Virus record (IMG/VR): IMGVR_UViG_3300010970_000218
Coordinates: 1 to 11,878 of that record
From: a virus
DNA length: 11,878 nucleotides
Direction: 5' to 3' (one strand)
In this document: in pieces, positions 4,152 to 11,878 of the stretch
Layout of the letters: each line of letters starts with the position of its first letter
How positions within the stretch are numbered: the first letter of the stretch is position 1
Made by a program: the position numbers and the translations under genes
Notes under the pieces: model-generated
The model's database searches: none
Seen by the model: the letters and a program-made list of their open reading frames with translations, nothing else
Told to the model about the DNA's origin: nothing

Positions 4152-4814
4152 TTAGCGAACCGGAGTGATATTCTGCCCGAGGATTCCGCGGAAAATTACC
4201 ACAATTCTTGGGGCAACTGATGCCTGAAGTGTAGAAATTGCACCTGGAAGCTCAAGAGTAACCACGTTATTTTTTGATCCAACCAATACAATGTTTGGCT
4301 CTACTGGATAGTATCCAAATTCAGTTGCATCATTCTGATCAATAGTTGTTGCAGTTGCAGCAGCACCTTGTTGAGTTTGCGGAACGTACAAATGCCTGTA
4401 AAGATCCCAAGCTGGAACGATTTGGCGATTATTTACAGTAACTGACAATTTACCATTGTACAAATTATACAAAGCAGTAGCAGCACCTGAAGTGGTGAAA
4501 GCTGAAGCATTTGGATAAGTGTAAAGAGGAAAAGCAGTAGTAGTGGATGAAGCTGGGATACTTACGAAAACGCCTATGCTCGATACCACGAACGCATCCT
4601 GAAGATTCAAAAGTTGATTCGTTGGATAGTTAGTATTAGCACCGGTGCTATTAACCAGAATGGGAATTTGGTATGAAGTAGTAGAAGTTGACATTGCTAC
4701 TTCAGAACGAAGATAAGACTGGCTGAGAACCGCTTGACCAGCAGAAAAACCAGCATTGTTAACAAGATTTTTGGCATTGTCAAATATTAGCCTTTGCCCG
4801 TGTTGTGTTGCCAT
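4152..4814 (-). CDS. Candidate major capsid protein of single-jelly-roll size (220 aa).
   Basis: No Cys, and rich in Ala/Thr/Ser/Asn/Val with alternating beta patterns ('AFVVSSIGVFVSIP', 'NGKLSVTVNNRQIVPAWDLY', 'NNVVTLELPG', 'RIVVIFRGIL'). It looks locally GC-richer than its neighbours. An 84-nt spacer follows it. No homology search was possible. Confidence 0.45.
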   Translation of the reverse strand: MATQHGQRLIFDNAKNLVNNAGFSAGQAVLSQSYLRSEVAMSTSTTSYQIPILVNSTGANTNYPTNQLLNLQDAFVVSSIGVFVSIPASSTTTAFPLYTYPNASAFTTSGAATALYNLYNGKLSVTVNNRQIVPAWDLYRHLYVPQTQQGAAATATTIDQNDATEFGYYPVEPNIVLVGSKNNVVTLELPGAISTLQASVAPRIVVIFRGILGQNITPVR

Positions 4815-4840: not shown

Positions 4841-5269
4841 TTAATAAGAATATTCTTCATCCATTCCAGCAATTACGGAAAGATTGTCCTCACCATAACC
4901 AGCAATAACAGAAAGATCATCTCCAGCCATTACACTAACTGGAATTTCCATTGCTTCATCAATGGCACCCAGAATGTTAGTTGCTTGAAGCAGTCCAAGA
5001 CCACCAGCAGCTACCATACCATCACCGATTGACTTACCAAAAGATCCTTTTACAAATTTAGGAAGGAAAGCACCAATAGCCACAACTGCAGCAGATTTGA
5101 TCTTTGCATCCAAATTAGGAAGAATTTTACCAGATGAAGTCAGAACCCTTGCAGCAGCAGCACCAGCAACAAGACCAGCAGCATCCATAATAAAAGACTT
5201 TCCGATTGCTCCCATTTTGCGAGATTTCCTACGACGGCTGGGGGCAGACCTCTTTTTTCTTTTAGCCAT
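4841..5269 (-). CDS. Protein with an Arg/Lys-rich N-terminal arm, a Gly/Ala-rich hydrophobic core and an acidic repeat tail (putative DNA-binding internal/membrane virion protein).
   Basis: N-terminus 'MAKRKKRSAPSRRRKSRK'. Hydrophobic segments 'AAGLVAGAAAARVL' and 'AAVVAIGAFL'. C-terminal tandem 'DDLSVIAGYGE/DNLSVIAGMDE'. Confidence 0.6.
   Translation of the reverse strand: MAKRKKRSAPSRRRKSRKMGAIGKSFIMDAAGLVAGAAAARVLTSSGKILPNLDAKIKSAAVVAIGAFLPKFVKGSFGKSIGDGMVAAGGLGLLQATNILGAIDEAMEIPVSVMAGDDLSVIAGYGEDNLSVIAGMDEEYSY
4866..4931 (-). repeat. Imperfect 33-nt tandem duplication (2 units) inside CDS 4841..5269, encoding the 11-aa D-x-LSVIAG repeat.
   Basis: Unit 4866..4898 'ccagcaattacggaaagattgtcctc...' against unit 4899..4931 'ccagcaataacagaaagatcatctcc...'. 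Confidence 0.7.
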
Positions 5270-5314: not shown

Positions 5315-6229
5315 TTATAACATACCATTTTCAGCAAAGCTATAATGGGAGTCTTTTGTTATTATAATATGATCTAAAATGTTAATATTATGAGTACTTG
5401 CGGCTTTTATTAATTGTTTAGTCAATTTTTCATCTGCTTCAGATGGTCTTAAATTTCCAGAAGGATGATTATGGCACAAAATTAAACTAACTGCACCCAT
5501 TTGTAAAGCACCAGCCAAAACCAACCTAACATCAACACTAACAGAACTTATTGAGCCAATACTATGTACATAAACACCTAAAACTTTATTTGCTTGATTT
5601 AAATATGCAACTGCAAAAAGTTCCTGTGTTTCAATTTTATTTTTTCCAATAAACCTTTTAAAAATTTCGGATCCATCAGTAGAACTTTTTATAGTATCAC
5701 TAATTGCTTTTTTTCCTCTTGTTACTCTTAATTTGACTTCAGGTACCAAATTTTTTAAAGTGCTTAATTTTCCAACACCAGCAACAATAATTTCTTTTCC
5801 AAATTTATATCCTGAAAGGCTAACAAATTCAGAAGGAATTTTTGCACCAATTTTGCTAAAATTAGCAAATGTTCCATTTTTAGATCTTGTTACACGATAC
5901 TCATTTTTTGCAAGTTTTCTGTAACCTTTTTCATCTTTATAACGTGTATCTCTATTTAAATAATCACCAACTTTTTTCTTTTTAACACCTGAAACCACTT
6001 TAATATTTACATTGTGGCTTTTTGTGTCTTTATGTGATCCAGTTACTTTTTTGGCAACTGCTTTCTTTTTTGGTGCAGTTTTCTTTTTTGGTTCAGCCTT
6101 CTTTTTAACGGCACCTACTTTTTTTCCGTAAATATGTGCAAATGCTTCCTTTAAAGAAACACCAGTTTTTTTTCTATATTCAATAGCCTTTTTAAACTTA
6201 TCCTTTGCTATCTTTTGTGCCTGTGTCAT
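5315..6229 (-). CDS. radC: RadC-like JAB/MPN (JAMM) domain protein with a Lys-rich histone-H1-like N-terminal extension.
   Basis: The C-terminal domain 'ELFAVAYLNQANKVLGVYVHSIGSISSVSVDVRLVLAGALQMGAVSLILCHNHPSGNLRPSEADEKLTKQLIKAASTHNINILDHIII' matches the RadC/UPF0758 signature (E..., HNHPSG, PSxxD, DHIII). The N-terminal tract is 'KKKAEPKKKTAPKKKAVAKK'. Confidence 0.8.
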   Translation of the reverse strand: MTQAQKIAKDKFKKAIEYRKKTGVSLKEAFAHIYGKKVGAVKKKAEPKKKTAPKKKAVAKKVTGSHKDTKSHNVNIKVVSGVKKKKVGDYLNRDTRYKDEKGYRKLAKNEYRVTRSKNGTFANFSKIGAKIPSEFVSLSGYKFGKEIIVAGVGKLSTLKNLVPEVKLRVTRGKKAISDTIKSSTDGSEIFKRFIGKNKIETQELFAVAYLNQANKVLGVYVHSIGSISSVSVDVRLVLAGALQMGAVSLILCHNHPSGNLRPSEADEKLTKQLIKAASTHNINILDHIIITKDSHYSFAENGML

Positions 6230-7878: not shown

Positions 7879-7902
7879 TTTCAAAATTTTCAAATAATAA
7901 CC

Positions 7903-7934
7903 CAAAATTACTGAAAAATATTCAAAAAACCAAA
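7903..7934 (-). promoter_or_regulatory. Bacteroidota-type promoter for the long structural/lysis operon: -33 TTTG (7934..7931), 20-nt spacer, -7 TAATTTTG (7910..7903).
   Basis: Minus-sense the region reads 'TTTG GTTTTTTGAATATTTTTCAG TAATTTTG'. This is a perfect match to the TAnnTTTG consensus, about 25 nt upstream of ATG 7878. Confidence 0.5.
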
Positions 7935-7936
7935 CA

Positions 7937-7978
7937 TTAGGTCAAAGTAGGTCAGAAAGTGGGTCAGTTTATAGGTAC
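7937..7978 (+). repeat. Phased direct iterons (T)AGGTCA / GGGTCA / TAGGTAC, including two adjacent 12-mers (C/G)AAAGT(A/G)GGTCA.
   Basis: TAGGTCA at 7938..7944 and 7948..7954, TGGGTCA at 7960..7966, TAGGTAC at 7972..7978. Spacing is 10, 12 and 12 nt. The tandem 12-mers are at 7943..7954 and 7955..7966. Confidence 0.7.
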
Positions 7979-8007
7979 ACCCGCCCCCCTGTAAGGGGGG
8001 CGGGTGT
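7977..8007. other. Perfect 13-bp GC-rich stem-loop (ACACCCGCCCCCC / TGTAA / GGGGGGCGGGTGT). Candidate origin, packaging or strand-switch structure.
   Basis: Arms 7977..7989 and 7995..8007 are exact reverse complements with a 5-nt loop. Eleven of the 13 pairs are G:C, in an AT-rich genome. No T-run follows on either strand. Confidence 0.75.
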
Positions 8008-8043
8008 CCTACCCCCTTTCCTGAAACCTTTTGTCCAGGATAA

Positions 8044-8062
8044 AAACTGACCTAAACTGACC
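8044..8062 (+). repeat. Two copies of AAACTGACC at 10-nt period, the reverse complement of GGTCAGTTT at 7962..7970. These are inverted iterons on the far side of the GC hairpin.
   Basis: 'aaactgacc' at 8044..8052 and 8054..8062. 'TGACCTA' at 8048..8054 is the reverse complement of TAGGTCA. Confidence 0.7.
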
Positions 8063-8075
8063 AAAATTCATCTAA

Positions 8076-8096
8076 TTCACTTTCCCTTCACCTTTA
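8076..8096 (+). promoter_or_regulatory. Motif copy C, TTCAC-TTTCCC-TTCAC-CTTTA. It is the only copy oriented on the plus strand.
   Basis: The plus strand reads 'ttcactttcccttcaccttta'. Positions 8078..8091 are the exact reverse complement of 8369..8382. Confidence 0.6.
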
Positions 8097-8102
8097 GCAA
8101 TT

Positions 8103-8127
8103 AAAAAAGGGGCAAATTGCCCCTTTT
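8103..8127 (-). terminator. Rho-independent terminator after CDS 8154..8342 (symmetric, so potentially bidirectional).
   Basis: The plus strand reads 'aaaaaaggggcaaattgcccctttt'. Minus-sense this is GGGGC-AATTT-GCCCC followed by T6, about 30 nt after the stop. Confidence 0.75.
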
Positions 8128-8153
8128 ATGTTTGTTTGCAGTGTTAATGTTTG

Positions 8154-8342
8154 TCAGGATGCCTCTGTGAGGTATTCTCTGGCCTCAAATTCCTTCGTTC
8201 TCTTGTCATATAGGTTCACATACCATCCACCACTTTTAATGGCAAATTTGAGGATATTTTGAACGTTGTTGATATTCCTATATTTTCTTGGCTGAATGCC
8301 AGTTTCAGGTTTAAAAAAAATAATGGCAGTGTAAAGTTTCAT
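8154..8342 (-). CDS. Hypothetical 62-aa basic protein in its own hairpin-to-terminator cassette.
   Basis: ATG at 8342..8340 and TGA at 8156..8154. Sequence 'MKLYTAIIFFKPETGIQPRKYRNINN...'. No motif recognised. Bracketed by the 14-bp inverted repeat 8078..8091 / 8369..8382. Confidence 0.55.
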   Translation of the reverse strand: MKLYTAIIFFKPETGIQPRKYRNINNVQNILKFAIKSGGWYVNLYDKRTKEFEAREYLTEAS

Positions 8343-8368
8343 TTTGTTAGAAATTTTCTATTTTTGTT

Positions 8369-8383
8369 GTGAAGGGAAAGTGG
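8369..8383 (-). promoter_or_regulatory. Motif copy D. Minus-sense it reads CCAC-TTTCCC-TTCAC, 26 nt upstream of ATG 8342.
   Basis: The plus strand reads 'gtgaagggaaagtgg'. This is a 14-nt exact inverted repeat with copy C. Confidence 0.6.
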
Positions 8384-8412
8384 TTTTTCGTTAGGAAGAT
8401 CATTTGTCAAGG

Positions 8413-8434
8413 TAGGATCAGGCGACTGATCCTA
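8413..8434. other. 9-bp hairpin (TAGGATCAG-GCGA-CTGATCCTA) overlapping the stop codon of the ATPase gene.
   Basis: Arms 8413..8421 and 8426..8434. Minus-sense there is no T-run, so it is not a canonical terminator. It may be an attenuator or processing structure between the ATPase gene and the 62-aa gene. Confidence 0.5.
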
Positions 8435-9391
8435 TTTTTGTTTATACAATTCACCAGATTTTACGATTGATCCATCCAGCAACCAGTCTTTAACCAATTT
8501 TTTACAGGTAGTTGATCCCTTGCCAGTAAATTCTTCCAGGTCAGCTAAAAGTTCAGTATATTTTCTGGGCTGGTATAATATCCTGTTTATTAGGCTGGTT
8601 TTTTCCATTCCAAAAATATATGTTCCAGACTTTTCCTGTGTGTTGTTTGCCTGTGTCCAGGATGATCCAGAATAATAAATTGAAATAGGGTTAAATTCAT
8701 CAGATGAACGCAGAAAAGTGGCTGAAAGATCAATAGTTTTATTTTCCTTATTTTTTTCAATCTTTAAAACTGATTGTGCTTTTCTATCCAGGTAGGAACC
8801 AATATGCCCAATACTATTTTGTTCCTTTTTACCCAAATGTAAAACGCAAAGGATAAGTAAATTGTGGATCTTGGTAATTTTCTTCAGCCATTGAATTAAA
8901 TAAAAACTTTGTTCTACTGAATTAAAATCTGAAATAAGATCCAGGATTCCATCCAGCACTAAAATTGAGCAGTCTGGATTCTCTTGCAAATAAATTTCAA
9001 TCATTTGCTGAATCTCATTAGGACTGTCCTCTCTAAATAAAAAACTATCAAAATTATGGGGCAAATAATCAGTTATTATTTGCGTTCTAATCCTATCCAA
9101 TACCCTGTAATAATCAAAATCACTGCTTTCAGTGTCTATGTAACAAATTCGCTTCCTGTCTGGTGGAAAGTTAAGTTTCATTCCAAATATATCCCAGGTA
9201 GTAAATGCGGAAGCAATGGCACTGGTGATAAATGTACTTTTACCCGCTTTAGGTAATCCCTGGAAACAAACAAATGACTGCAAACAACCTATATTTTTAC
9301 CATCAATAGTAAAAATTATATTTTCATCTGGTGGCTGGTAGTTTTGCTTGAATTTCCTGGATAACAATTTTTCGTGTAGATCATTTGTCAT
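8432..9391 (-). CDS. RecA-fold P-loop ATPase, RepA/DnaB-like (AAA_25-type). Putative replicative helicase and the only NTPase in the genome.
   Basis: Walker A 'GLPKAGKST'. 'RICYIDTESS' is a catalytic-Glu strand as in DnaB/RepA. Walker B 'CSILVLDGILDL'. 'LLILCVLHLGKK' is sensor-like. The ORF track starts at TTG 9403, and the first ATG is at 9391..9389 (MTNDLHEK...). Confidence 0.65.
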   Translation of the reverse strand: MTNDLHEKLLSRKFKQNYQPPDENIIFTIDGKNIGCLQSFVCFQGLPKAGKSTFITSAIASAFTTWDIFGMKLNFPPDRKRICYIDTESSDFDYYRVLDRIRTQIITDYLPHNFDSFLFREDSPNEIQQMIEIYLQENPDCSILVLDGILDLISDFNSVEQSFYLIQWLKKITKIHNLLILCVLHLGKKEQNSIGHIGSYLDRKAQSVLKIEKNKENKTIDLSATFLRSSDEFNPISIYYSGSSWTQANNTQEKSGTYIFGMEKTSLINRILYQPRKYTELLADLEEFTGKGSTTCKKLVKDWLLDGSIVKSGELYKQK

Positions 9392-9404
9392 TGGTTTACA
9401 CAAT

Positions 9405-9668: not shown

Positions 9669-9738
9669 TTTTTTATTTTATTTATTGTTGATTTTACAAT
9701 AGTTCTAATTCAATAAGTTTATAACCAATTTTTTTTAC

Positions 9739-9838
9739 ACTTTTCACAATTTGTTTTTTTATTGAATTATTTAAAGTCAAACAATAAGGGCAAAGTGGTT
9801 TCCCGACTTTGCCCCTGTATTGGGTTATTGTGAAAAGT
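9739..9838. repeat. 12-bp perfect inverted repeat ACTTTTCACAAT (9739..9750) / ATTGTGAAAAGT (9827..9838) bracketing terminator 9788..9814.
   Basis: The arms are exact reverse complements. The core CTTTTCAC/GTGAAAAG resembles the TTCAC motif family. Confidence 0.65.
9788..9814 (-). terminator. Rho-independent terminator after CDS 9848..10069.
   Basis: Minus-sense: GGGCAAAGT-CGGGAAACC-ACTTTGCCC, followed by TTATTGTTT. The stem is 9 bp. Confidence 0.7.
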
Positions 9839-9847
9839 TTTGAGCAA

Positions 9848-10069
9848 TTAACGCACTTCATTGTTTCTTTGTGTGTTGCGTTCTTTTAATATTGCTTCAT
9901 ACTTCACAAAATCTTCCATTGCATACTTCATAGAATATTTGCGTAAAAAATAGATCTTTGAAATTCCTTCACTGGGATATTCAGTTGTGGAAAGCAAAAT
10001 AAAGGGTTCATTGGCAGAAATAAAAACTTCAAAAAAATACTTTGTTCCATTAATTGTGTAAGGCTTCAT
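9848..10069 (-). CDS. Hypothetical 73-aa protein.
   Basis: ATG at 10069..10067, 1 nt after the upstream stop. TAA at 9850..9848 is followed by a terminator. No motif recognised. Confidence 0.55.
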   Translation of the reverse strand: MKPYTINGTKYFFEVFISANEPFILLSTTEYPSEGISKIYFLRKYSMKYAMEDFVKYEAILKERNTQRNNEVR

Positions 10070-11823: not shown

Positions 11824-11878
11824 AAATTTTAAATTATTATGGAATCAAAGTTAAGTTAAGTTGAGTTGCTATCCATTC
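11824..11878. repeat. Terminal direct repeat, copy 2 (identical to 1..55). It contains a duplicate of the 3' end of CDS 14..283.
   Basis: Exact 55/55 identity with 1..55, giving a unique unit length of 11,823 bp. Confidence 0.95.

Follow-up and report, generated by a model that had tools for sequence, protein, structure and literature searches.

A covarying hairpin between opposed GGTCA iterons as a candidate replication origin in a group of small circular freshwater viruses

For the SaPI Rep helicases, binding to penta- or hexanucleotide iterons through a C-terminal winged helix has been reported; these iterons closely follow rep and flank the centre in opposed orientation, two or more per side (PMC9371898). 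In the Sulfolobus plasmid pRN1, a stem-loop of ~100 nucleotides (nt) past the rep terminator is essential for replication (PMC4234260). Its structure is conserved and its sequence is not, the flanks are conserved, the integrity of the stem is required, and the authors proposed that the winged-helix replication protein assembles at this site; stem-loop origins of this type have been described for pRN1 and some phages (PMC4234260). The IncQ plasmid RSF1010 uses the RecA-fold helicase RepA at an origin with iterons and the hairpin priming signals ssiA and ssiB (PMC8567376). Here, a module of GGTCA iterons around a central hairpin is described in the IMG/VR virus record IMGVR_UViG_3300010970_000218, whose full length of 11,878 nt is referred to as the window. 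This module (7937-8062) had been put forward in a preliminary description as an origin and/or packaging signal, framed in terms of single-stranded DNA (ssDNA) replicons.

With a probability of about 0.5, the module is the oriV at which a small circular virus of Bacteroidota, probably with a double-stranded genome, starts its replication, an origin of the kind served by a self-loading helicase. The contig is a closed circle of 11,823 unique base pairs (bp) with a 55-bp terminal direct repeat (1-55 / 11824-11878). Its GC content is 33% and all credible genes are located on the minus strand, called the gene strand in the following. The early block encodes a lysis cassette and several small proteins, a protein of 87 amino acids (aa) whose translation is coupled to that of a 323-aa ATPase, and a 62-aa protein, and the late block from 7880 encodes membrane, RadC-like, putative capsid and fibre proteins. 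Both blocks are separated by the largest non-coding gap of the genome (7881-8153, 273 nt). The module lies within it, as had been noticed before, and is thereby placed downstream of the replication gene block, past the terminator of the early operon and before the promoter of the structural operon.

The hairpin and repeat elements listed in the preliminary description were all found again at their positions, with some corrections to their extent. The central hairpin (7972-8011) can form on both strands. Its apical stem (7977-7990 / 7994-8007) is a perfect inverted repeat, as claimed, yet it comprises 14 bp with the loop GTA (7991-7993) instead of 13 bp with the loop TGTAA, and 11 of the 14 pairs are G-C within a genome of low GC content. 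TAGG (7972-7975) and CCTA (8008-8011) lengthen the stem by four pairs beyond a single bulged base, T7976 (A on the gene strand). The segment TAGGTACA (7972-7979), formerly counted as a fourth promoter-side repeat, is the base of this hairpin, which leaves three GGTCA units on that side. The whole folded element of ~70-75 nt (7955-8021, both strands) consists of a basal helix, an 8-nt internal loop and the central hairpin. Here, the basal helix of nine pairs (~7955-7963 with 8012-8021) is built from the spacers beside the inner pentamers, and the internal loop is one-sided (7964-7971; gene strand TAAACTGA) and includes ACTGA of the first inverted pentamer. Against shuffled sequences, the fold of the 151-nt region reaches z = -7.2 for the minus strand and z = -6.9 for the plus strand.

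That the hairpin is selected for intrastrand pairing is supported by an alignment of 43 distinct sequences, in which the apical stem, the TAGG/CCTA extension and the basal helix were tested together. Paired cells amounted to 94.7% in comparison to 83.1% in shuffles, and 99 cells were changed on both sides (25 in shuffles). The covariation score of 0.286 was reached by none of 500 shuffles (0.068), and slid registers scored 0.06-0.12. Compensatory changes occur at four or more pairs of the apical stem and at one TAGG/CCTA pair. The basal helix covaries as well (CG33/GC5/UA3/UG1 and AU22/CG11/UG3/UA1), and at a further position of this helix the mismatch, T·T by inspection of the alignment, is changed to G-C in eight sequences. 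Among the stem variants of the relatives are ACACCCGCCCCCC, ACACTTGCACCCC, ACACAGGGCACCCC, TCAGGGGTATAC, TCACTTTCCCC and AAAATAACCC, and the opposite arm is always changed to match.

The imperfections of the fold recur across lineages as well, namely the bulged A, the T·T mismatch and the one-sided loop of 8 nt; the bulged A on the 3' arm is present in every variant printed (GTGT-A-CCTA, GTGA-A-CC). Their persistence suggests selection for a specific fold and not mere homogenisation of a palindrome. In the folded form the canonical pentamers pair with partners carrying one extra base, so that bulged duplex sites exist only there. The hairpin loop is variable (3-5 nt; TTACA, TAAA, TATA, TAGAA, TAC), and no conserved nick motif is present among the loops of the relatives compared. 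Pairing of the outer units I1 and I2 with the opposite set, as drawn by RNAalifold, involves invariant columns only, bar one flanking pair with a single variant type; the helices reported here are those that covary. For a DNA-level secondary structure within an array of iterons, the covariation evidence is unusually clean.

The relatives were collected by scanning IMG/VR with the ATPase, which yielded 80 contigs of 4-16 kb with 62-96% protein identity, and matches in protein databases widen the family to ~49% helicase identity, with contigs of 11-14 kb. The region is covered in 67 related contigs, and every one of them has the module, located between the terminator of the 62-aa gene and the first late gene, and none was found that has the flanking genes and lacks the module; the conservation asked for in the preliminary description is thus borne out. 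Hairpin energies in these 67 relatives range from -11.4 to -23.3 kcal/mol (median -18.1). On the gene strand, the order is a purine box, two GGTCA units at 10-nt spacing, a third GGTCA after a further 16 nt, a fourth unit GGTTCAG, the hairpin, then CTGACC, CTGACC and TTGACC at 12- and 10-nt spacing, and a promoter match. At 49-53% helicase identity the order is still the same, and the stem is quite different (TTAGCTTTGA). This indicates that the module is a conserved functional element rather than a chance arrangement.

The GGTCA units amount to three or four on each side of the centre and are opposed in orientation. On the promoter side (7940-7967), GGTCA(A/G) is found on the plus strand at 7940, 7950 and 7962, i.e. 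TGACC on the gene strand, with spacings of 10 and 12 nt; this set is also present in the distant relatives. The far side (8021-8062) comprises the gene-strand units I1 to I4. I1 (GGTCA, 8062-8058) and I2 (8052-8048) are 10 nt apart and appear as TGACC at 8058 and 8048 on the plus strand. I3 is degenerate in the window (GGACA, 8036-8032; TGTCC on the plus strand), and the relatives have TGACC there, i.e. GGTCA in nearly all. I4 contains one inserted base (GGTTTCAG on the gene strand, 8028-8021; CTGAAACC on the plus strand, 8021-8028). The inner units I1, I2, R1 and R2 are invariant in the 43 sequences aligned, and the promoter-proximal unit varies in some relatives (TTGTCC, CCGACC). Next to the far-side set lies the conserved purine box (8068-8097; gene strand AAAGGTGAAGGGAAAGTGAATTAGATGA), which carries degenerate GGTGA, AGTGA and GATGA units (8068, 8077, 8088) phased at 9-11 nt with I1 and I2 and reads AAAGGTCAAAAAGAAA in relatives with 49-53% helicase identity. 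The pentamer is not enriched genome-wide (19 versus 14.2 expected), and therefore what stands out is the local arrangement: the window contains two copies of GGTCA-N5-GGTCA (0.01 expected), both in the module and on opposite strands. Such phased and opposed pentamers point to recognition as duplex DNA.

The 323-aa ATPase (8432-9403, minus strand) is the nearest upstream gene of known type and, as judged from its sequence, the sole replication-type gene of the genome. It matches Pfam AAA_25 and a primase/helicase PHROG. Its AlphaFold2 (AF2) model has a mean predicted local distance difference test (pLDDT) value of 88.5 and aligns in Foldseek with the RadA/Sms helicase, KaiC, RAD51 and DnaB among PDB structures. 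Its neighbours among viral models are replicative helicases of phages and the helicase portion of prim-pol or Toprim fusions, and packaging ATPases do not align; PDB sequence searches, single and profile, gave nothing useful. The predicted fold is that of a RecA-type (SF4-like) helicase and not AAA+ SF3, and a prim-pol domain is absent. Residues 268-322 (nt 8435-8602) are modeled as three helices and a beta-hairpin with a winged-helix-like arrangement. Lys301, located in the predicted third and last helix of this domain, does not vary among 33 homologues, and conservation reaches at least 90% at Gly294, Lys295, Lys305 and Trp307, which fits a DNA target that does not change, as the invariant pentamers suggest. 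By its shape, this C-terminal domain is the candidate iteron binder.

The second protein to be considered is the conserved 62-aa protein (8154-8342, minus strand), whose gene is the last before the module and always lies directly upstream of the terminator T1 and the module. It is highly conserved (PRKYRNINN...GGWYVNLY) and is predicted by AF2 with a pLDDT of 92.8 as a beta-beta-alpha-beta-beta fold. Neither a family match nor a structural neighbour was obtained (best E = 0.24), so that it cannot be assigned as the iteron binder. In the searches against Pfam, PHROGs and NCBIfam, which did not include every small open reading frame (ORF), no HUH Rep, primase, integrase, relaxase or terminase was detected, and no helix-turn-helix regulator was detected among the small proteins scanned. 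Another small early protein (55 aa, 9694-9861, minus strand) displays a CxxC...CxxC zinc ribbon with weak treble-clef and GATA-type matches and is a possible nucleic-acid binder of the replication block. Two further readings of the palindrome were discarded: a protelomerase or telomere site, since the contig is circular and such an enzyme is not encoded, and a partition site, since no ParA/ParM-type gene is present.

From these data we infer pentamer binding by the helicase, melting, hairpin formation in vivo and origin activity in the following way. The RecA-fold helicase would recognise the GGTCA pentamers via its winged-helix-like domain, and the helical phasing together with the opposed orientation across the centre would let helicase assemblies load on both sides. 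Once the centre is opened, each strand could fold back into the conserved hairpin. In this folded form the pentamers would be presented as bulged duplex sites, an 8-nt single-stranded loop with CTGA would be exposed, and the open state would be stabilised. The fold may in addition offer a single-stranded entry or priming site, as the AT-rich unwinding element does in other origins. Since the three last pentamers adjoin the -33 box of the late promoter from upstream, their occupancy may modulate late transcription as well. A tentative, less probable extension for a double-stranded genome is that the GC-rich hairpin replaces the AT-rich unwinding element and that the bulged iteron duplexes, present in the fold only, act as a conformational switch read by the helicase.

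Several points weigh against an origin at this site. The GC skew has no switch point, the centre is GC-rich and not AT-rich, which is unusual for an unwinding element, and a primase is not encoded. The module is located ~430 nt from the helicase gene with the 62-aa gene in between, and in relatives cargo genes intervene too. The C-terminal domain of the helicase, scanned alone, has no Pfam family match. Template-switch correction of quasipalindromes could yield some of the compensatory changes without selection, a caveat that still applies to the perfect part of the stem. Finally, the repeats could serve mainly as an operator of the adjacent promoter.

This last view, in which a small early protein on the phased GGTCA units acts as operator or activator and switches late transcription, the hairpin being incidental or an insulator, is rather unlikely as a full explanation and can coexist with an origin role. 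A Bacteroidetes-type promoter match of the structural operon is present at 7903-7934 on the minus strand, with the -33 box TTTG at 7934-7931 (CAAA on the plus strand), where it had been reported, a spacer of 20 nt and the -7 box TAATTTTG at 7910-7903 (CAAAATTA on the plus strand). Three repeats with 10-12-nt spacing lie upstream of it, the last of them ends 5 nt before TTTG, an arrangement fixed in all close relatives, and several small early proteins without assigned function could occupy them. However, the promoter is a consensus match only and a helix-turn-helix regulator was not detected among the small proteins scanned. Covariation of stem and basal helix, the conserved bulge and loop, as well as the second, opposed set of repeats ~100 nt away are left unexplained by an operator. 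The earlier idea of a coupling between the repeats and the late promoter is a reasonable one, and control of this promoter is plausible as an added role of the origin.

Whether the element acts on one strand was assessed from the folding of both strands. G·T wobbles are found in three lineages and on the gene strand only, and A·C mismatches are not seen. Under RNA parameters the gene strand is the more stable of the two in 45 of 49 sequences (mean -2.6 kcal/mol), under DNA parameters in 33 of 49 (mean -0.6 kcal/mol), a weak preference among related sequences. These observations would fit a virion containing ssDNA of gene-strand polarity, with the fold as complementary-strand origin and/or packaging signal, comparable to the intergenic region of filamentous phages. 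The single coding strand, the arginine-rich N-terminus of the 142-aa late protein and the position of a long imperfect hairpin in the main intergenic region directly past a terminator fit as well. On the contrary, neither a HUH Rep nor another known ssDNA initiator was found among the ORFs scanned, the variable loop has no conserved nick motif, and the replication gene is a homologue of ring helicases, by its predicted fold of the type found in double-stranded DNA (dsDNA) phages. Furthermore, relatives carry C5 methyltransferases and other DNA-modification cargo, and rare variants on the gene strand display no deamination signature (C>T 0.082 per site versus G>A 0.118).

An ssDNA stage is therefore doubtful, and a dsDNA genome is probably the case in view of the methyltransferase cargo, the missing C>T excess and the helicase type. 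Two composition measures are neutral in this respect. The cumulative GC skew, proposed earlier as a means to locate the origin, is monotonic because all genes lie on one strand, and is uninformative; the four-fold sites are T-rich (0.48). From the preliminary description, what stands is a conserved, pairing-selected element in a gene context that fits an origin, and what finds no support is the ssDNA-replicon framing. A more radical form, in which ssDNA is packaged without a HUH Rep and a RecA-fold ring helicase recognises the iteron-decorated hairpin as complementary-strand origin and packaging handle, is quite improbable. To our knowledge, replication by such a helicase without a HUH Rep is not known for any ssDNA phage, and if true it would represent a replication mode new to them.

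Opposed repeats around a palindrome are also displayed by some packaging sites (pac- or cos-like) and by sites of site-specific recombination, and several partial contigs end in or near the module. Such a function is very unlikely, since no terminase, integrase, protelomerase or relaxase is encoded by the ORFs scanned and contig ends accumulate at the cargo hot spot too, and at hairpins that impede assembly. In addition, no prophage copy was found in a scan of 185,579 species genomes, the only match being a single short contig (L081) in a freshwater Bacteroidetes metagenome-assembled genome.

The module is read as a DNA element, acting as duplex and, transiently, in the folded state, because it follows the terminator and precedes the next promoter, lacks a U-run, has no conserved promoter of its own upstream and no Rfam match, and contains opposed pentamers. 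Here, no T-run follows the hairpin on either strand, the terminator scan of the region called only T1 and a second hairpin at 8409-8438, and the lone sub-threshold Rfam match falls on T1. On these grounds an RNA element on read-through early transcripts, be it a second terminator, a processing site or an RNA primer structure, is highly improbable, even with the slight gene-strand preference under RNA parameters and with the hairpin at the helicase stop codon behaving as an RNA terminator of the opposite strand, a sign of RNA-level selection nearby.

The surroundings of the module add further features. The terminator T1 of the early operon (8103-8127, AAAAAAGGGGCAAATTGCCCCTTTT) is a canonical hairpin with a T-run at the same position in all relatives; its symmetry suggests that it can act in both directions. 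The second hairpin (8409-8438) overlaps the helicase stop codon and is composed of TAGGATCAG, the loop GCGA and CTGATCCTA, followed by a T-run on the plus strand. Its stems covary in relatives, imperfect variants having A·C on the gene strand, equivalent to G·U on the plus strand, and it folds 5-9 kcal/mol better as plus-strand RNA. It looks like the intrinsic terminator of an antisense transcript opposite the 62-aa gene, and together with a bidirectional T1 it predicts a countertranscript of ~300 nt.

The core of the purine box has an inverted copy at 8369-8382 (GTGAAGGGAAAGTG), which pairs perfectly with CACTTTCCCTTCAC at 8078-8091. This 14-nt inverted repeat brackets the 62-aa gene and T1. 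Each copy contains two degenerate GGTGA/AGTGA units 11 nt apart, and both vary in concert among relatives (CACTTTTCTTTCA, CACTTTCTTTTCA, CACCTTTTTTCA). Together with the hairpin at 8409-8438, this suggests that 7900-8445 may form one replication-control region.

Between the helicase and the 62-aa genes (equivalent to 8343-8431), a cargo hot spot is present in the relatives L002-L077. Its content differs by relative and includes a C5 cytosine methyltransferase, another methyltransferase-like gene, an HNH protein, a PAPS-reductase-like gene, a 278-aa zinc-finger protein and a glycosyltransferase-like gene, names that are based on motifs read in the translations (e.g. GGFPCQPYS) and not on a family scan. 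Downstream of the cargo, the 62-aa gene, T1 and the module remain linked. In one relative (L011, 9200-9418), the reverse complement of the preceding sequence follows the terminator hairpin; this fold-back chimera at a contig end is an assembly artefact at the hairpin.

Helicase relatives from the human gut and Bacteroidales (30-35% identity), which have two opposed sets of different repeats, were dropped as support. Their annotated representative (L088; NZ_OY725959.1, a 15.7-kb 'plasmid' of Bacteroides finegoldii) is an NBU-like mobilizable element, and such elements (L088, L084-L086), which contain the nearest annotated relatives of the helicase (~33% identity), carry an integrase, a Toprim protein, MobC and a relaxase. 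The opposed repeats downstream of the Toprim gene in these elements may be oriT rather than oriV, and for this reason the repeats of this group are not used as evidence.

The virus group itself, ~12-kb freshwater viruses, is abundant and uncharacterised. Megablast of the whole window against GenBank phages as well as tblastn with the 220-aa and 400-aa late proteins gave no match, so that annotation cannot be transferred from any cultured relative. The 220-aa putative capsid protein (4152-4814, minus strand) has no PDB match, and in public metagenomes it forms at least 1,202 distinct clusters at 90% identity, none of which is annotated; nearly all of the contigs listed with it are 14 kb or shorter, and a few have 17-22 kb. 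Contig binning and the helicase relatives point to a host among Bacteroidota. Two late proteins may be internal DNA-binding proteins: the 142-aa protein (4841-5269, minus strand), whose strongly basic, arginine-rich N-terminus starts with MAKRKKRSAPSRRRKSRK, and the 304-aa RadC-like JAB protein (5315-6229, minus strand) with a lysine-rich N-terminal half and a strongly basic N-terminus.

For this group, the module would provide a testable origin fragment together with a candidate initiator, and with these a basis for a replicon or vector and for replication studies. If the origin is confirmed, it would show that a structured GC-rich hairpin can serve a self-loading helicase of RecA fold in place of the AT-rich unwinding element of other origins.

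In comparison to the described systems, the likeness to the SaPI/PICI origins lies in the 5-nt iterons, at least two per side and opposed, downstream of the helicase gene. SaPI Rep is initiator and helicase at once and has a C-terminal winged helix, for which the winged-helix-like domain predicted here would be the counterpart. In contrast, SaPI Rep is an AAA+ SF3 protein and the SaPI centre is AT-rich, whereas a RecA fold (SF4-like) and a GC-rich covarying hairpin are found in the present case; the 62-aa gene and a terminator separate helicase gene and repeats, and iteron binding is proposed from the model. With pRN1, the locus shares the succession of rep gene, terminator and stem-loop, a structure that is kept while its sequence is free, conserved flanks, and a (here predicted) winged-helix domain in the replication protein. 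However, ORF904 of pRN1 is a fusion of prim-pol and SF3 helicase, and phased opposed pentamers are not described for this plasmid of an archaeal host. The IncQ origin resembles the module by its RecA-fold helicase and by iterons beside hairpin-forming inverted repeats that are active only when single-stranded. It differs by the separate initiator RepC and the primase RepB', neither of which was detected among the ORFs scanned, and by ssiA and ssiB being two separate 40-nt signals instead of one palindrome between opposed iterons.

More distant parallels exist as well. In oriS of herpes simplex virus (HSV) with UL9 and in the core origin of simian virus 40 (SV40) with large T antigen, an origin-binding helicase acts on inverted short boxes around a central palindrome, and for HSV oriS an intrastrand hairpin between the boxes is reported to be recognised during initiation. 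Both are viruses of eukaryotes, their helicases belong to SF2 or SF3 and the centres are AT-rich, and neither sequences nor proteins are related to the present ones. Rolling-circle origins of the pMV158/pT181 type depend on a HUH Rep and on a conserved nick motif within the loop or beside it; with these and with ssDNA phages the locus shares a hairpin and nearby direct repeats in the main non-coding region, but both the Rep and the motif are absent among the ORFs scanned and the loops compared. The motifs (T/G)GGTC and CTG resemble T7 primase recognition sites and the E. coli DnaG site, respectively. The module combines features of the SaPI, pRN1 and RSF1010 systems and differs from each in a defining respect; as an origin it would be a variant of these rather than a member of one of their families.

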